A DNA stretch of 9,373 nt from a virus (lineage: Duplodnaviria > Heunggongvirae > Uroviricota > Caudoviricetes), in IMG/VR virus record IMGVR_UViG_2695420792_000007; one strand, written 5' to 3'. Shown piece after piece: positions 1-8,439 of the stretch. Numbering within the stretch: position 1 is the first letter of the stretch; each line of letters starts with the position of its first letter. Under the pieces are notes generated by a model. That model did no database searches. It was not told the origin of the DNA and saw only the letters and a list, made by a program, of their open reading frames with translations. Both the position numbers and the translations under genes were made by a program.

Positions 1-344
1 GCCATCATGAAAGTTAATTGCGTGTCCCGCACCTCCGCCTATATTCCCGGCAAACTGAGAAAAGTTTGTAGCTTCCTGCCAGCTTAATAATTCGCGACCA
101 CCGTCTGCACCTCGCCCGTCATCCCAGATACGAATGAAATCACCGCGGGCTTCAGGTAATACCAGCGAAGGAAACACTTTCGCCAGCACAGGATAATCAG
201 TGGCAGAGAATTTCGCGCCGTTGAACTTCAAAAACACCATACTGGACCAGCTGTCGATTACAGTATTTGGCATTGCAGCGGACGGCCAGAAGAACGGAAC
301 GCCAATAGCTGGAGCACCTTCTCCCAAACCAACGTTTAAGAAAA
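1..344 (-). CDS. Phage tail fibre variable C-terminal cassette 'a' (partial; runs off the window start; silent orientation with no upstream constant part in the window)
   Basis: Manual minus-strand translation from the crossover site down to base 1 is open with no stops: ...GLGEGAPAIGVPFFWPSAAMPNTVIDSWSSMVFLKFNGAKFSATDYPVLAKVFPSLVLPEARGDFIRIWDDGRGADGGRELLSWQEATNFSQFAGNIGGGAGHAINFHDG. This matches the phage tail-collar motif pattern of P2 H / Mu S / P1 S tail-fibre C-termini (recalled). Upstream on this strand is the antisense of the invertase leader, so no promoter or constant part is attached here. Confidence 0.7.
319..344. other. 26-bp inversion crossover site (hix/gix/cix-like), copy 1
   Basis: Sequence TTCTCCCAAACCAACGTTTAAGAAAA is an imperfect palindrome with AAACC..AA..CGTTT halves, closely resembling hixL TTCTTGAAAACCAAGGTTTTTGATAA (recalled). 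It sits directly upstream of the invertase and inside the tail-fibre reading frame, as in Mu G / P1 C / e14 P segments. Confidence 0.65.
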
Positions 345-399
345 TGCAGAGGTAACAGCTAACTGGCATCATCTCCGGTTTTTATTCAGGGGGATGATC

Positions 400-966
400 A
401 TGCTTATTGGCTATGTACGCGTGTCAACAAATGACCAGAACACCGATTTGCAACGTAATGCACTGAACTGCGCGGGATGTGAGCGGATTTTTGAGGACAA
501 AATCAGTGGCACTAAGTCCGACAGACCGGGGCTGAAAAAACTACTCAGGACACTATCGGCAGGAGACACGCTGGTTGTCTGGAAGCTGGACAGGTTGGGG
601 CGCAGTATGCGGCATCTTGTTACGCTGATAGAAGAGTTGCGCCAGCGTGGTGTGAATTTCAGAAGCCTGACTGACAGTATTGATACCAGTACCCCAATGG
701 GCCGTTTCTTTTTTCATGTCATGGGTGCCCTGGCTGAAATGGAACGCGAACTGATAGTTGAACGTACCAGGGCAGGGCTGGCTGCAGCTCGTGCCAAAGG
801 CAGAGTAGGTGGACGCCGTCCTAAGTTGACCACCGAACAGTGGGCACAGATTGGGCGTTTACTCGAGGCCGGAGAATCAAGACAGCGTATTGCACTGATT
901 TTTGATGTAGGCGTTTCTACCATTTATAGAAAATTTCCGGCAAATAAGATCAATGAATCCCCCTGA
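400..966 (+). CDS. pin: Serine DNA invertase, Gin/Hin/Cin/Pin family, copy 1
   Basis: Translation MLIGYVRVSTNDQNTDLQRNALNCAGCERIFEDK...SLTDSIDTSTPMGRFFFHVMGALAEMERELIVERT is near-identical in its N-terminal half to Gin/Pin as recalled, with the catalytic Ser in VRVSTNDQ. Start is placed at the second ATG (400) because homologues begin MLIGY and AGGGGG at 388-393 sits 6 nt upstream; the ORF track uses the ATG at 394. Confidence 0.9.
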   Translation: MLIGYVRVSTNDQNTDLQRNALNCAGCERIFEDKISGTKSDRPGLKKLLRTLSAGDTLVVWKLDRLGRSMRHLVTLIEELRQRGVNFRSLTDSIDTSTPMGRFFFHVMGALAEMERELIVERTRAGLAAARAKGRVGGRRPKLTTEQWAQIGRLLEAGESRQRIALIFDVGVSTIYRKFPANKINESP

Positions 967-1004
967 ATCAGCATTATGTTGATTATCCCTGCAAGCAGAC
1001 AAAT

Positions 1005-1022
1005 ACCGTTATTTTGTGTGAA
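1005..1022 (+). promoter_or_regulatory. TGT-N12-ACA Ogr/Delta-type activator box of a putative late promoter (PF-like) upstream of the sheath gene, copy 1
   Basis: TGTgtgaataacgacACA lies about 100 bp upstream of the FI-like start codon, where the P2 F-operon late promoter is expected. P2/P4 late promoters carry a TGT-N12-ACA element near -55 (established knowledge). The -10/-35 elements were not confidently located. Confidence 0.5.
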
Positions 1023-1108
1023 TAACGACACAACTGCGCTTAGCTGTTTGTCAGGCACAATCACTTCAACATAGGGCGAAGCCTAATCCAATCAGGAGGT
1101 TCGCCACT

Positions 1109-1282
1109 ATGGCTCAGGATTACCACCACGGGGTGCGCGTTGTTGAAGTCAACGAAGGCACCCGATCTATTACCACGGTGAGCACCGCCATCGTGGGTAT
1201 GGTCTGCACGGGCGATGATGCCGATGCAAAAATGTTTCCTCTTAATAAACCCGTGCTGATCACTGATGTGCTGACTGCCAGC
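1109..1282 (+). pseudogene. Tail sheath protein (P2 FI-like) 5' fragment, about 58 codons, copy 1
   Basis: AGGAGG at 1093-1098 precedes the ATG at 1109. [58 protein letters not shown] matches the recalled P2 FI N-terminus (MSDYHHGVQVLEINEGTR...[10 protein letters not shown]...). After 1282 the reading frame continues into the antisense of tail-fibre genes, so the 140-aa ORF in the track is not a real sheath protein. Confidence 0.75.
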
Positions 1283-1458
1283 ACTGGTTTTCCATTCAGT
1301 GTTCCAATCTGTTTTCCTGGTGGAATATCCATAAATAACTTTTTATGTTCTTCCTCACTGACTATTACACCATCATCAGGCCACAGACCTGATGCCTCAA
1401 ATTTTTCTTTCTCCGATATGGGGAAAAAGCCATTTGCTTTAGCGCTCCATACGTACAT
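1283..1458 (-). pseudogene. Tail fibre assembly chaperone (Tfa/Caudo_TAP-like) N-terminal fragment, cut at the duplication junction
   Basis: Minus-strand ATG at 1456-1458 gives [58 protein letters not shown], the characteristic N-terminus of tail-fibre assembly proteins (YxxSAKxNAFYP...WPDDAVEV, recalled). It starts 1 nt after the stop of cassette 'b'. Homology ends at 1283, where the strand becomes antisense of the sheath gene. Confidence 0.65.
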
Positions 1459-1459
1459 A

Positions 1460-1767
1460 TCAATACCCCACCGCTATAATGTCCACATTAAATCCCCCGG
1501 GACCTGCCTGCCAGATGCTGGCCCCTGTTAATGATTTTGTTTGATGAACAACCGCCACATTTGCTGGCGATTGTGTTTCAGTTGTTACAGTACCGATATC
1601 ATTCCAGTTAATTGAGATGGAATAGTTCGTTGTTGTAAACGACCGGGGGAAAGTTATGTGTCTTACATTGGTGCCAACAGGAAATCCAAGATAAACACGC
1701 TGAATTATCATTCCTCCAGGTAACATAACCCAGTTAGCACCTTCTCCCAAACCAACGTTTAAGAAAA
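1460..1767 (-). CDS. Phage tail fibre variable C-terminal cassette 'b' (silent orientation), read through crossover site copy 2
   Basis: Minus-strand frame is open from the crossover site to the TGA at 1460-1462: ...[97 protein letters not shown]. It shares the GLGEGA junction with cassette 'a' and then diverges completely, and is followed by a Tfa-type gene, as in Mu Sv-U units. The track ORF start at 1795 is an antisense artefact of the invertase leader. Confidence 0.6.
1742..1767. other. 26-bp inversion crossover site (hix/gix/cix-like), copy 2
   Basis: Same 26-bp sequence as 319-344, in direct (not inverted) orientation relative to copy 1. Confidence 0.65.
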
Positions 1768-1822
1768 TGCAGAGGTAACAGCTAACTGGCATCATCTCCG
1801 GTTTTTATTCAGGGGGATGATC

Positions 1823-2389
1823 ATGCTTATTGGCTATGTACGCGTGTCAACAAATGACCAGAACACCGATTTGCAACGTAATGCACTGAACTGCGCGGGA
1901 TGTGAGCGGATTTTTGAGGACAAAATCAGTGGCACTAAGTCCGACAGACCGGGGCTGAAAAAACTACTCAGGACACTATCGGCAGGAGACACGCTGGTTG
2001 TCTGGAAGCTGGACAGGTTGGGGCGCAGTATGCGGCATCTTGTTACGCTGATAGAAGAGTTGCGCCAGCGTGGTGTGAATTTCAGAAGCCTGACTGACAG
2101 TATTGATACCAGTACCCCAATGGGCCGTTTCTTTTTTCATGTCATGGGTGCCCTGGCTGAAATGGAACGCGAACTGATAGTTGAACGTACCAGGGCAGGG
2201 CTGGCTGCAGCTCGTGCCAAAGGCAGAGTAGGTGGACGCCGTCCTAAGTTGACCACCGAACAGTGGGCACAGATTGGGCGTTTACTCGAGGCCGGAGAAT
2301 CAAGACAGCGTATTGCACTGATTTTTGATGTAGGCGTTTCTACCATTTATAGAAAATTTCCGGCAAATAAGATCAATGAATCCCCCTGA
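1823..2389 (+). CDS. pin: Serine DNA invertase, Gin/Hin/Cin/Pin family, copy 2
   Basis: 190-aa translation in the ORF track is identical to copy 1; same start-codon reasoning (track start 1817). Confidence 0.9.
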   Translation: MLIGYVRVSTNDQNTDLQRNALNCAGCERIFEDKISGTKSDRPGLKKLLRTLSAGDTLVVWKLDRLGRSMRHLVTLIEELRQRGVNFRSLTDSIDTSTPMGRFFFHVMGALAEMERELIVERTRAGLAAARAKGRVGGRRPKLTTEQWAQIGRLLEAGESRQRIALIFDVGVSTIYRKFPANKINESP

Positions 2390-2427
2390 ATCAGCATTAT
2401 GTTGATTATCCCTGCAAGCAGACAAAT

Positions 2428-2445
2428 ACCGTTATTTTGTGTGAA
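2428..2445 (+). promoter_or_regulatory. TGT-N12-ACA Ogr/Delta-type activator box, copy 2
   Basis: Same sequence as 1005-1022, upstream of the second sheath start at 2532. Confidence 0.5.
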
Positions 2446-2531
2446 TAACGACACAACTGCGCTTAGCTGTTTGTCAGGCACAATCACTTCAACATAGGGC
2501 GAAGCCTAATCCAATCAGGAGGTTCGCCACT

Positions 2532-2915
2532 ATGGCTCAGGATTACCACCACGGGGTGCGCGTTGTTGAAGTCAACGAAGGCACCCGATCTATTACCACG
2601 GTGAGCACCGCCATCGTGGGTATGGTCTGCACGGGCGATGATGCCGATGCAAAAATGTTTCCTCTTAATAAACCCGTGCTGATCACTGATGTGCTGACTG
2701 CCAGCGGTAAAGCGGGTGAGTCAGGTACTCTGGCCCGTTCGCTGGATGCCATCGCTGACCAGGCAAAACCCGTGACCATTGTTGTGCGTGTGCCGCAGGG
2801 TGAAACGGAAGACGAAACCACGACCAATATCATCGGCGCAGTGACTGCTGAAGGTAAAAAAACAGGTATGAAAGCCCTGTTACCCGCAATATTGAACAGC
2901 TCGGTGATGCGCTGA
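2532..2915 (+). pseudogene. Tail sheath protein (P2 FI-like), truncated after about 117 codons
   Basis: [12 protein letters not shown]...[30 protein letters not shown]...[19 protein letters not shown] follows the recalled P2 FI sequence to about ...TGLKAML, then gives [10 protein letters not shown] and a stop. The ORF is 127 aa against about 396 aa recalled for P2 FI. Confidence 0.75.
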
Positions 2916-2935
2916 ACTATCTGGATGATAACGCC

Positions 2936-4984
2936 ATGTCGAAAGGGGCAGACATCATTGATGTCATGCAACGCCTGGGCGGTGTGGCTGATCGTCTGGA
3001 TTATCGTAAAGCGGCGGCGCTGGGTTCCACCTTTCTGACACTGGGCGCTGCGCCAGAGGTTGCAGCCAGTGCAGCAAACGCGATGGTGCGTGAATTGTCC
3101 ATTGCCACCATGCAAAGCAAGAGTTTCTTTGAAGGGATGAATCTGCTGAAACTCAATCCTGAAGTGATTGAAAAGCAGATGACGAAGGATGCGATGGGAA
3201 CTATCCAGCGCGTACTGGAGAAGGTGAACGCACTGCCGCAGGATAAACGTCTGTCTGCCATGACCATGTTGTTTGGTAAAGAGTTTGGCGATGACGCGGC
3301 GAAACTGGCAAACAACCTGCCGGAACTGCAGCGCCAGCTAAAACTGACAGCGGGCAATGATGCGCTCGGCTCCATGCAGAAAGAATCCGACATTAACAAG
3401 GACTCACTTTCTGCGCAGTGGTTGCTGGTCAAAACCGGAGCGCAGAACACCTTCAGCAGCCTGGGCGAAACGCTGCGCCAGCCGCTGATGGATATTCTGT
3501 ACACGGTGAAAAGCATCACGGGGGCGTTGCGCCGCTGGGTGGAAGCTAACCCGGAACTGACAGGCACACTGATGAAAGTAGCCGCTGTGGTGGCTGCGGT
3601 TACCGTAGGCCTCGGAACCTTAGCGGTGGCGCTGGCTGCAGTGCTGGGGCCGCTGGCAGTGATTCGTCTGGGATTCTCTGTGCTGGGTATCAAAACGTTA
3701 CCTTCCGTTACGGCAGCAGTAACCCGAACCAGCAGCGCGTTGTCCTGGCTGGCTGGCGCACCACTGGCACTGTTGCGACGCGGGCTTGCTTCATCGGGCA
3801 ACGCCGCAGGTTTACTTACTGCGCCGTTGTCGTCTTTGCGCCGCACGGCATTACTGACGGGAAATGTCCTGAAAACTGTAGCAGGTGCGCCGGTTGCACT
3901 TTTGCGGTCTGGATTATCCGGTTTACGTGCTGTTGCTGTGATGTTTATGAATCCTCTGGCGGTACTGCGCGGTGGACTGGCCGCCGCAGGCACGGTGCTG
4001 CGAGTACTGGCATCTGGTCCACTGGTGATGCTGCGCGTTGCCCTGTATGCCGTATCTGGTCTGTTAGGTGCTCTGCTCAGTCCGATAGGTCTTGTGGTTA
4101 CTGCACTGGCGGGCGTGGCGCTGGTTGTCTGGAAATACTGGCAACCCATCACCGCATTTCTTGGTGGCGTGGTGGAGGGATTCAAAGCGGCGGCAGGTCC
4201 CGTCAGTGAAGCATTCGAACCGCTTAAGCCCGTGTTCCAGTGGATTGGCGACAAAGTACAGGCGCTGTGGGGCTGGTTTACTGATCTGCTGACGCCCGTT
4301 AAGTCGACCTCTGCCGAACTGCAGAGTGCAGCGGCAATGGGGCGACGATTCGGGGAGGCACTGGCGGAAGGGCTAAATATGGTCATGCATCCGCTGGACT
4401 CCCTGAAATCCGGCGTTTCCTGGTTGCTGGAGAAGCTCGGCATTGTCAGTAAAGAGGTCGCAAAGGCAAAACTGCCGGAAAGCGTGACGCGTCAGCAACC
4501 TGCGACGGTGAATGCAGACGGTAAAGTGATGATGCCATCGGGTGGTTTTCCATCATGGGGATATGGCTTTGCGGGGATGTATGACAGCGGCGGGTATATC
4601 CCGCGCGGGCAGTTTGGCATCGTCGGTGAAAACGGGCCGGAAATTGTTAACGGCCCGGCAAATGTGACCAGCCGGAGAAATACAGCTGCACTGGCTGCCG
4701 TTGTTACCGGAATGATGGGAGTTGCTGCCGCGCCAGCAGAGCTTCCACCGTTGCACCCTTTGGCACTTCCCGCGAAAGGTGGAGAAGCAATTGTGAGTCG
4801 CGCAGCCACTGTGCCGCCCGTTTACAGGATTGAGGCACCGACGCAGATCATCATCCAGACGCAGCCAGGACAAAGTGCGCAGGATATTGCGCGGGAGGTG
4901 GCCCGCCAGCTTGATGAACGTGAACGCAGGCTGAAGGCAAAGGCCAGGAGTAACTACAGCGATCAGGGGGGATACGACGCATGA
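2936..4984 (+). CDS. Phage tail tape measure protein (P2 gpT-like), 5'-truncated; first in-frame ATG at 2936, frame open from 2858
   Basis: 682-aa ORF with a tape-measure-like N-region (...LGSTFLTLGAAPEVAASAANAMVRELSIATMQ...LFGKEFGDDAAKLANNLPELQRQL...), a central hydrophobic region with repeated PLxxLRxGL motifs, and a C-terminal Gly-rich end. The stop overlaps the gpU start (ATGA at 4981-4984). It is about 100+ residues shorter than the roughly 815 aa recalled for P2 T and has no RBS-equipped native start. Confidence 0.8.
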   Translation: MSKGADIIDVMQRLGGVADRLDYRKAAALGSTFLTLGAAPEVAASAANAMVRELSIATMQSKSFFEGMNLLKLNPEVIEKQMTKDAMGTIQRVLEKVNALPQDKRLSAMTMLFGKEFGDDAAKLANNLPELQRQLKLTAGNDALGSMQKESDINKDSLSAQWLLVKTGAQNTFSSLGETLRQPLMDILYTVKSITGALRRWVEANPELTGTLMKVAAVVAAVTVGLGTLAVALAAVLGPLAVIRLGFSVLGIKTLPSVTAAVTRTSSALSWLAGAPLALLRRGLASSGNAAGLLTAPLSSLRRTALLTGNVLKTVAGAPVALLRSGLSGLRAVAVMFMNPLAVLRGGLAAAGTVLRVLASGPLVMLRVALYAVSGLLGALLSPIGLVVTALAGVALVVWKYWQPITAFLGGVVEGFKAAAGPVSEAFEPLKPVFQWIGDKVQALWGWFTDLLTPVKSTSAELQSAAAMGRRFGEALAEGLNMVMHPLDSLKSGVSWLLEKLGIVSKEVAKAKLPESVTRQQPATVNADGKVMMPSGGFPSWGYGFAGMYDSGGYIPRGQFGIVGENGPEIVNGPANVTSRRNTAALAAVVTGMMGVAAAPAELPPLHPLALPAKGGEAIVSRAATVPPVYRIEAPTQIIIQTQPGQSAQDIAREVARQLDERERRLKAKARSNYSDQGGYDA

Positions 4985-5466: not shown

Positions 5467-6209
5467 ATTTCAGCTCTGAACTGCTTAACAAAGGCAACAA
5501 AACTCCGGCATTCAGCATCAGTATTGAAGGCAGGGATATCACCACTGTGCTGGACAACCGCCTGATGGGGCTGACGCTGACGGATAACCGGGGATTTGAA
5601 GCGGACCAGCTTGATCTGGAGCTGGACGACGCCGATGGAAAAATCGTGCTGCCGCGCCGTGGTGCGGTCATTACGCTGGCGCTGGGCTGGAAGGGGCAGC
5701 CGCTTTTCCCGAAAGGGGCATTCACGGTGGACGAGATTGAACACACTGGCGCACCGGACCGCCTGACTATCCGGGCGCGAAGTGCTGATTTTCGGGAAAC
5801 CCTGAATACCCGCGAACCTGCGAAGAAAGAAAGCACCACGGTGAAGCGTAAGCGCAGAACTAAGAAGCAGAAGAAAGAGCCAGAAGCGAAGCAGGGCGAT
5901 TACCTGGTGGGTACGGATGAAAACGTGCTGGTACTTAATCGCACTTATGCCAACCGGAGCAACGCCGAACGAGCGGCGAAAATGCAGTGGGAACGCCTGC
6001 AACGCGGCGTTGCGTCATTCTCGCTACAACTGGCAGAAGGGCGGGCAGATCTCTACACGGAAATGCCAGTGAAAGTCAGTGGCTTTAAACAGCCGATAGA
6101 TGATGCGGAATGGACCATTACGACTCTGACGCATACCGTCAGCCCGGATAACGGTTTTACGACCAGTCTGGAGCTTGAAGTGAGGATTGATGATTTCGAA
6201 ATGGAATGA
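5463..6209 (+). CDS. Phage tail protein gpD-like (late gene D), apparently shortened by an internal in-frame deletion
   Basis: 248 aa from a GTG start. N-terminal (...LTDNRGFEADQLDLELDDADG...VDEIEHTGAPDRLTIRARSADFRETLN) and C-terminal (...WERLQRGVASFSLQLAEGRADLYTEMPVKVSGFK...GFTTSLELEVR) regions match recalled P2 gpD, but the protein is about 140 aa shorter than the roughly 387 aa recalled. Confidence 0.75.
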   Translation: MNFSSELLNKGNKTPAFSISIEGRDITTVLDNRLMGLTLTDNRGFEADQLDLELDDADGKIVLPRRGAVITLALGWKGQPLFPKGAFTVDEIEHTGAPDRLTIRARSADFRETLNTREPAKKESTTVKRKRRTKKQKKEPEAKQGDYLVGTDENVLVLNRTYANRSNAERAAKMQWERLQRGVASFSLQLAEGRADLYTEMPVKVSGFKQPIDDAEWTITTLTHTVSPDNGFTTSLELEVRIDDFEME

Positions 6210-6518: not shown

Positions 6519-6598
6519 CGCTGCCGCCATTTTGTCGCCATCGTTAAAAAACAGTGTTTCTAACATCATGATTTTAAACAGCTTAAATTTCAGGCAAC

Positions 6599-6641
6599 AA
6601 AAAACCCATCAACCTTGAACCGAAATGGCGGGGTTGATGGG
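6599..6641 (-). terminator. Putative rho-independent terminator for leftward transcription (ybjL), or att-associated hairpin
   Basis: A 10-bp inverted repeat, CCCATCAACC (6605-6614) and GGTTGATGGG (6632-6641), encloses a 17-nt loop and is preceded on the plus strand by A6 (6599-6604), giving a U-tract after the stem on the minus strand. It lies about 110 nt downstream of the ybjL stop, so the assignment is uncertain. Confidence 0.4.
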
Positions 6642-6753
6642 CTCCACAAAATGGGGACATCAAAGAAAAGCAGTGGCACTAATTAAGACTGATGCCCTGC
6701 GGAAAAGTTCTGCGGTTGTGCAAAAAAATTTCATTTTCAGGGCAACTTCAGTT

Positions 6754-8439
6754 TTATCCTAATCCTGGCCATACCATGACGATGATTGTCCCTGCCAGCG
6801 TCAGCAGGACGTTGGCGATTGCATAGGTGCCCGCATAGCCCAGCGCCGGGATGTTACTGCGAGCTGTATCACTGATGATCTCCATTGCCGGCGCGCAGGT
6901 ACGTGCGCCCATCATTGCGCCGAACAACAGCGCGCGGTTCATTCGCAATACATAAGCACCGAACAAGAAACAGATAACCACGGGCACCAGACTGACAATC
7001 AATCCGGCAATCAACATCTGACCGCCAATCGCGCCCAGGCCGTTATTAATACCGCTACCGGCGCTCAGACCAACGCCTGCCATAAACACCATCAAGCCGA
7101 ACTCTTTCACCATGCTTAATGCACCCTGCGGAATGTAACCGAAGGTCGGGTGGTTAGCACGCATAAAGCCCAGCATAATTCCGGCGAATAACAACCCGGC
7201 AGCGTTCCCCATGCCGAAACTGAATGTGCTGAACTGGAAGGTGATCATCCCGATCATCAGCCCAATAACAAAGAAGGCGCAGAATGCCAGCAGGTCAGTG
7301 ACCTGGCTGTGAATCGAGATAAAGCCGATGCGATCGGCGATGGTTTTTACGCGGCGGGCATCGCCGCTGACTTGTAAAACGTCACCTTTGTTAAGCACGA
7401 CGTTGTCATCTATCGGCATCTCAATCTGGCTACGAATGACGCGGTTAAGGAAGCAACCGTGATCGGTCAACTTCAGTTGTGCGAGACGTTTACCTACAGC
7501 GTTATGGTTTTTAACGACCACTTCTTCAGTGACGATACGCATGTCGAGAAGGTCACGATCGAAAACTTCTTTACCGTTACGGAAGCTGGGATCGAGTCGG
7601 GCATGGGCGTCGGGATAGCCTACCAACGCTATTTCATCGCCCATTTGTAGCACGGCATCACCGTCTGGATTTGCCAGAATCCCGTTACGTCGAATACGTT
7701 CAATGTAGCAGCCGGTTTGTCGATAAATACCCAGTTCACGCAGATTTTTGCCGTCGGTCCAGGCCACCAGTTCCGGGCCGACGCGATAGGCGCGGATCAC
7801 CGGTAAATAAACCTTACGGTTGGCATCAGTGTCCAGGCCACGTTCGCGGGCGATTTGCTGGGCGCTGGTCTGTAAGTCCTGATGCTGCAATTTCGGCAAG
7901 TAACGCGCACCAACAATCAAACTCACCAGACCGATTAAATAGGTTAAGGCATACCCGAGGCTCAGATTATCCAGTGCCAGTGAGAGCTGCCTGCTTTCCA
8001 TGCCGGAATGACGCAGTGTATCGCCAGCACCGACCAGAACCGGTGTCGACGTCATAGAGCCTGCTAACATACCGGCCGTCAGGCCAATATCCCAGCCAAA
8101 CAGCTTACCTAACCCTAAGGCGATCACCAGCGCACTGCCAACCATCACCAGTGCTAACATTAGGTAATTTTTCCCATCGCGAAAAAAAATGGAAAAAAAG
8201 TTCGGTCCGGCTTCGACCCCGACGCAGAAAATAAACAGCATAAAGCCAAGATTAAGCGCATCGGTGTTAATGCTGAAATGTTGTTGGCCTAATAACAGCG
8301 ATACGACTAAAACGCCAATGGAATTACCCAGTTGGATCGAACCAAGTCGTAACTTTCCGAGACATAGCCCAAGCGCGAGGACCACAAATAATAACAGAAT
8401 GTAATTCCCATTTAACAATTCGGCGACGTTTATATTCAC
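6754..8439 (-). CDS. ybjL: Putative transport protein YbjL (AAE/YidE-family membrane transporter with central TrkA-C-like domains)
   Basis: 561-aa ORF from a GTG start ([24 protein letters not shown]...VMVWPGLG) with hydrophobic N- and C-terminal halves around a soluble central region. Sequence, length and the ybjL-ybjM-grxA neighbourhood match E. coli YbjL as recalled. Confidence 0.9.

Follow-up and report, generated by a model that had tools for sequence, protein, structure and literature searches.

The question raised by this locus is whether the joint at positions 1282/1283 of the window, at which codon 58 of a phage tail sheath gene meets the interior of a tail-fibre assembly gene lying on the opposite strand, is a junction in DNA or a product of assembly. 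(The window is the whole stretch of viral DNA analysed, 9,373 nucleotides of IMG/VR record IMGVR_UViG_2695420792_000007.) It corresponds to positions 2-9374 of a draft contig, CYEH01000023.1 (92,182 bp), of the E. coli assembly GCA_001284685.2, and it carries a P2-like prophage remnant inserted beside ybjL, ybjM and grxA; E. coli genomes match the chromosomal part at 99.6-99.9% identity. A single base of the source contig precedes window position 1; the contig thus terminates within the Collar-type tail-fibre cassette Hv, probably at a repeat boundary common to the fibre genes of other prophages. The features on either side of the joint are these:

1-312, minus strand: C-terminal variable cassette Hv (Collar-type) of tail-fibre gene H, flipped, beside hixR
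313-1282, plus strand: repeat copy 1, with hix, the invertase gene, an intergenic region and sheath codons 1-58
319-344, plus strand: hixR-type crossover site of copy 1, TTCTCCCAAACC AA CGTTTAAGAAAA, scoring 26/26
400-966, plus strand: serine DNA invertase of 188 aa, copy 1 (PF00239, PF02796)
1109-1282, plus strand: codons 1-58 of the P2 FI-like sheath gene, the duplicate copy, ending at the gap
1283, no strand: scaffold gap, N in the public record and A in the window
1284-1458, minus strand: tail-fibre assembly gene tfa', codons 1-58; the scaffold piece begins within the gene
1460-1795, minus strand: alternative tail-fibre C-terminal cassette Hv', unflipped; its 111-aa ORF runs through hix copy 2
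1736-2705, plus strand: repeat copy 2, with hix at 1742-1767, the invertase gene at 1823-2389 and the sheath 5' end
2532-2882, plus strand: authentic 5' portion of the sheath gene, up to the deletion joint 2882/2883

The segments 313-1282 and 1736-2705 form an exact direct repeat of 970 bp (offset 1423, identity 970/970), each copy of which contains a hix-like site, the gene of the 188-aa serine invertase and codons 1-58 of the P2 FI-like sheath. The flanks of the two copies are unrelated: over 100 bp, the left ones agree at 16% and the right ones at 19% of positions. With the sheath ATG at 1109, position 1282 is the final base of codon 58, and 1109-1282 matches genes annotated as 'phage tail sheath protein' in many genomes at 100%. 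Beyond copy 1 come the antisense codons 1-58 of tfa' and then the 111-aa Hv'; beyond copy 2 comes authentic sheath sequence (...CAGC/GGTAAAGCGGGTGAG). The original prediction described this arrangement accurately. In the window, sheath codon 58 does abut an antisense Tfa N-terminus (1282 closes the codon, and the minus strand of 1284-1458 encodes Tfa residues 1-58); Tfa is truncated there to ~58 residues, the protein of intact relatives having 142 aa; and copy 2 does pass into authentic sheath. It was also right that the joint is without a hix-like site and so is not itself an invertase product: the best 26-mer over 1270-1295 scores 12/26, which is background, versus the 26/26 that is reached in the window only at 319 and 1742, and a scan of the same interval for a hix-like site at 1282/1283 found only AAACCnnGGTTT, matching at 7/10.

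Where the original prediction fails is in treating 1282/1283 as a junction in DNA, since the record carries an N at that base. Compared base by base with CYEH01000023.1, the window differs from its source at position 1283 only, A standing in place of N. This N is the only non-ACGT base within the 16.2 kb of the contig that were read, it is present in all three retrievals of the record (L005/L006/L007), and its position coincides with the edge of the repeat, the joint lying near the end of the contig. Because the record shows N there, the A at 1283 is the placeholder of a one-base scaffold gap, the N having become a nucleotide in the preparation of the window; the joint as written therefore reads ...GACTGCCAGC, then (N)CTGGTTTTCC. 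In relatives, the tfa' base that corresponds to 1283 is G (in the intact prophages L008-L010) or A (in E308). Some sheath alleles, in IMT5155, DE17 and VTB96815v, have A, not G, after codon 58. BLAST matches to sheath alleles of that kind reach 1283 by chance, because A is the base that follows codon 58 in them, and this coincidence could mislead an analysis of microhomology at the placeholder base. The microhomology for which the original prediction proposed to look comes down to an imperfect resemblance of CAGC to CAGT(G), the bases at the joint being ...CCAGC/ on the sheath side and ...TCAGTG/ on the tfa' side, with no exact shared bases at the breakpoint.

Searches for the joint elsewhere have been uniformly negative, and they do not all carry the same weight. 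A search of 5,426 complete E. coli genomes gave no place that covers it. A scan of the representative genomes of GTDB for the 37-mer at the junction was also negative, which is weakly informative, as few E. coli/Shigella representatives are expected in GTDB. Neither the chimeric 140-aa ORF nor the 112-aa antisense ORF was found by exact look-up; the gene called at the joint (140 aa) probably carries X at the N codon, so that negative results of exact look-ups would say little.

An independent assembly bears on the question more directly. Logan contigs are the products of k-mer graph assembly in which repeats are left unresolved. The last 1,716 bp of one of these, ERR178192_76 (16,425 bp), equal window 1900-3615 with 0 mismatches, and the contig crosses 2705/2706 unbroken, running from sheath codon 58 into GGTAAAGCG.../GGTAAAGCGGG..., that is, into authentic sheath sequence. 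A fixed junction of sheath codon 58 to tfa' would create a branch at 2705/2706, and the contig would end there; ERR178192_76 does not. It also includes the isolate-specific deletion joint 2882/2883, which is taken up below, and the deletion-specific proteins of the locus (127, 682 and 248 aa) are likewise found in a Logan assembly. Exact identity of sequence, together with unique deletion ORFs common to both, makes it probable that run ERR178192 comes from the isolate that is behind GCA_001284685.2. (A literature search for ERR178192 gave no match.) At its other boundary in the window, ERR178192_76 stops at position 1900, equivalent to 477 in copy 1, a point that lies within the invertase gene, ~80 bp from its start, rather than at hix. 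The stop at this point suggests k-mers shared between the 5' region of the invertase gene and some other locus of the genome, possibly a second invertase gene.

Why the record should contain two copies at all is something that the original prediction missed, and the answer lies in the organization of the tail-fibre locus. In intact relatives the order is H (constant)-hixL-(Hv, tfa, antisense tfa', antisense Hv')-hixR-invertase-sheath-tube-...-tape measure-U-D-ogr, the parentheses enclosing the invertible segment, and the H proteins carry the Collar domain (PF07484). The invertase combines a Resolvase domain (PF00239) with a C-terminal helix-turn-helix (PF02796, HTH_7) and matches the 'DNA-invertase' of PDB entries 3uj3/4m6f at E = 1e-92. 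In L008-L010, hixR pairs in inverted orientation with hixL (TTCTCACATACC TT GGTTTGGGAGAA), and the two sites, 1,731-1,836 bp apart, flank the alternative fibre cassettes and tfa genes. The window carries hixR only, written twice. A related prophage at the same ybjL site, L002 (NZ_CP029057.1, FORC_081; positions 8083-9477), is otherwise intact and has IS26 near the 5' end of its invertase gene; the insertion splits the gene into a fragment of 66 bp and a remainder of 558 bp, the latter of which the annotation lists as a second recombinase gene.

The nearest intact relative, L008 (GCA_047619605.1), contains all three window segments at 99.7-99.9% identity, with window 1-335 reversed. Hv (1-312) is matched in reverse complement by L008rc 6880-6546 (99.7%) and by E308 L003 4061-3727 (98.2%), the DNA of the second piece (from 1284 onward) agrees with L008rc 7825-9423 at 1598 of 1599 positions, tfa' residues 1-58 are identical to those of the 142-aa Tfa of L008 (PF02413, Caudo_TAP), and the exact Hv' protein (111 aa; 'gp53-like' according to the sources) occurs in all three intact prophages, L008-L010. 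The 1,746-bp segment of L008 was inverted in silico at the central dinucleotides of hixL and hixR. Flipped in this way, L008 reproduces window 1-1282 with 1 mismatch; unflipped, it reproduces window 1284-2882, also with 1 mismatch. Since L008 thus reproduces both pieces, the part of the window that precedes the gap (piece A) represents the flipped state, and the part that follows it (piece B) the unflipped state, of one locus. Each is also a valid arrangement in other genomes: window 1-1282 is contiguous at 99.2-99.5% identity in finished genomes, for example TW10598 and IMT5155, and the layout of piece B is that of L008-L010. The left edge of the repeat, at 313, consists of the hix site with 6 conserved bases added; on the right, the repeat is bounded by the gap. 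Because that left edge is at hix and because two alternative cassettes precede the copies, flipping by the invertase is the underlying cause of there being two of them. Both orientations of the segment have been captured by the assembly (window 1-344 and 1460-1767; L008rc 6537-8308), and we infer that they coexisted within one culture. Their capture would imply that this heavily deleted remnant still has an active invertase, or had one in the culture that was sequenced.

Very probably, then, the 1282/1283 joint is a scaffolding artefact of a short-read draft assembly and not a biological breakpoint. Three lines of evidence support this: the N at the joint, the absence of the joint from the independent assembly, and the derivation of both pieces from a single relative by a hix flip. 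That the copies agree at 970 of 970 positions is expected if the same DNA has been written twice. The cell itself has no sheath-to-tfa' joint, and the 970-bp 'repeat' is single-copy DNA represented twice, copy 1 being the DNA of copy 2 written a second time. Of the two readings that the original prediction had offered side by side, the chimeric assembly join has therefore gained, by the N at the joint and by its absence from the ERR178192 assembly, and the illegitimate-recombination breakpoint has lost, no contiguous sequence crossing the joint. The C-terminus of tfa' is most likely present in the genome, just off this scaffold.

The way in which such an artefact would arise can be outlined. 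The isolate very probably contains one defective P2-like prophage by ybjL, with a cassette resembling the Mu G segment that is flipped by its own serine invertase, and in a culture with both orientations the reads would place either Hv or Hv' directly to the left of hixR. Piece A (1-1282) stands for the flipped form, with Hv, hixR, invertase and sheath codons 1-58, and piece B (1284 onward) for the unflipped form, with the tfa' N-terminus, Hv', hixR, invertase, sheath and what follows; a read-pair scaffolder would have chained A ahead of B, with a residual one-base N between them. The most likely route begins with read pairs from flipped cells, which would link the contig containing Hv to invertase and sheath sequence lying ~450 bp inside the contig of piece B. 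The scaffolder would then set the Hv contig before contig B with a gap of very small or negative size, and a gap-filling program would extend the Hv edge through hix, the invertase gene and the 5' end of the sheath gene without ever overlapping the tfa' edge, so that an N would be left over. A single residual N is typical of SSPACE/GapFiller. A high-throughput Illumina pipeline for bacterial genomes, of the kind behind ENA/ERR short-read assemblies, that makes its joins with SSPACE, leaving N gaps, and then runs 120 GapFiller iterations has been described by Page et al. in 2016 (PMC5320598), and the authors of the pipeline warn that greedy tools of the SSPACE/GapFiller type 'can lead to false joins' (PMC5320598). 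GapFiller extends both edges of a gap by k-mer overlap, and an overlap of 10 nt or more between the two extensions is its condition for closing the gap (PMC3446322). The pipeline of PMC5320598 may be regarded as a candidate model for the origin of CYEH01000023.1.

An N formally means 'unknown sequence', and a real, unsequenced connection between the two pieces may, as a matter of logic, be what it stands for. Several forms of this and of other readings have to be weighed against the artefact. The isolate might have a second P2-like prophage, in tandem with the first or elsewhere, that has hix, invertase gene and sheath 5' end in common with it, piece A coming from this second prophage in flipped form and being mis-linked through the shared repeat. 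Many E. coli genomes do hold several such loci, with up to 5-6 matching places each, and the end of the Logan contig at 1900, within the invertase gene, suggests k-mers in common with another locus. A second copy that is identical over 477-1282 must nevertheless diverge downstream, and this would break the Logan contig, which is unbroken from 1900 through 2705 to 2882; moreover, both cassettes are found in the one invertible segment of L008 at 99.7-99.9% identity, and the copies do not differ at a single one of 970 positions. On this evidence two prophages are a very unlikely source of the repeat. Were they its source, the joint would still be artificial, and the 970-bp repeat would truly exist in two copies.

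Less likely again is a real tandem duplication of 1,423 bp (from tfa' codon 58 to sheath codon 58, window 1283-2705) by illegitimate recombination, followed by inversion between hixL and the hixR of copy 1, with the N a miscalled base. These two steps reproduce the whole layout of the window on paper, and the two genuine microhomology deletions elsewhere in this prophage mark the locus as one prone to rearrangement. Duplication followed by hix inversion was an early working model of ours; it was dropped on account of the N and of the unbranched Logan contig. A fixed duplication would force a branch at the right edge of the repeat, and the k-mer assembly has none; the base at the joint is N in the record; the two sides resemble each other there only imperfectly, with no exact shared bases, and none of the other genomes searched has the joint. 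To the left of the copies the sequences differ (16% identity), which makes the additional inversion necessary, and the reading as a whole requires two rare events where the artefact requires none. A variant of it has the N concealing a real 1.4-kb tandem duplication of tfa'N-Hv'-hix-invertase-sheath5' that arose by blunt illegitimate recombination and was then partly flipped, and we give this a similarly slight chance. If it were true, the locus would have three hix sites and two invertase genes, and it would represent a natural step on the way to multi-cassette, shufflon-like tail-fibre loci.

The scaffolding artefact at 1282/1283 shares the window with two joints, at 2882/2883 and 5813/5814, that are genuine prophage deletions; neither has an N in the record. 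At 2882/2883, a deletion of 2,806 bp with TA microhomology fuses codon ~117 of the sheath gene to the interior of the tape-measure gene T, removing the rest of the sheath gene, the tube gene, E/E' and ~1 kb of T. This joint is directly confirmed by Logan contig ERR178192_76 and occurs in none of the 5,426 complete E. coli genomes. At 5813/5814, an in-frame deletion of 354 bp in gpD (late control D), between 8-bp direct repeats (ATACCCGC), leaves an ORF of 248 aa. Its product is also found in Logan, near-identical 248-aa gpD variants occur in a few draft isolates (P0017, P0022, P0023), and a strict 60-bp search found the joint in no complete E. coli genome.

An unrelated P2-like prophage, inserted at ssrA in strain F719 (NZ_OY754392.1; L004), also has a sheath-to-tape-measure deletion, with its joint at 8183/8184. 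That deletion has a left end identical to the one at window 2882 (...GCCCTGTTA/), and on the right it extends 48 bp deeper into T. Common ancestry with a secondary deletion of 48 bp and a hot spot of breakage are both candidate explanations of the shared endpoint. A 112-aa sheath fragment of Shigella boydii (P0003) was considered as an instance of the same deletion joint and rejected: it ends differently (...AEGKKQV), diverging at a run of A, and its sequence looks like that of a frameshift.

Three kinds of known system offer themselves for comparison. Misjoins made in scaffolding and gap filling (SSPACE/GapFiller type) resemble the present case in having an N at the joint, a location at a contig end, flanks that are each valid by themselves, no counterpart of the joint in an independent assembly, and, on one side of the gap, a duplicate of single-copy sequence. 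The difference is that the gap is here a single base, so that the sequence looks contiguous once the N has been made a nucleotide. This is a reason for caution, since a single-N gap that is turned into a nucleotide in preprocessing mimics a clean illegitimate-recombination breakpoint, complete with a chimeric ORF (of 140 aa in this instance) and an apparent gene truncation. Tandem duplication at microhomology and illegitimate recombination in decaying prophages offer a likeness in the apparent head-to-tail unit of 1,423 bp and in the genuine deletions of this prophage (TA at 2882/2883, ATACCCGC at 5813/5814), but there is no sequenced novel joint and no exact microhomology, and the left flanks of the copies differ.

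The third comparison is with the Hin/Gin/Cin/Pin family of invertible segments (Mu G, P1 C, e14 P), with which the locus shares a serine invertase, 26-bp inverted sites with a 2-bp core, and alternative tail-fibre C-termini that each have their own tfa, both orientations being represented. (Hin and Gin systems also have a Fis-dependent enhancer, located within the 5' end of the invertase gene.) The host is in this case a defective P2-like prophage at ybjL, and the 1282/1283 joint, unlike a product of these enzymes, is not at hix; a system of the Hin/Gin type explains only the left edge of the repeat and the existence of two versions. Artefacts like this one are to be expected at invertible phage segments, where a culture contains the two orientations side by side and scaffolders are confused by them. 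As far as can be read from the sequence, flipping of the tail-fibre cassette probably persists in the heavily deleted P2-like remnant at ybjL; the segment is of an ordinary, well-known type, and cassette flipping by cryptic prophages is already familiar, for example from e14.
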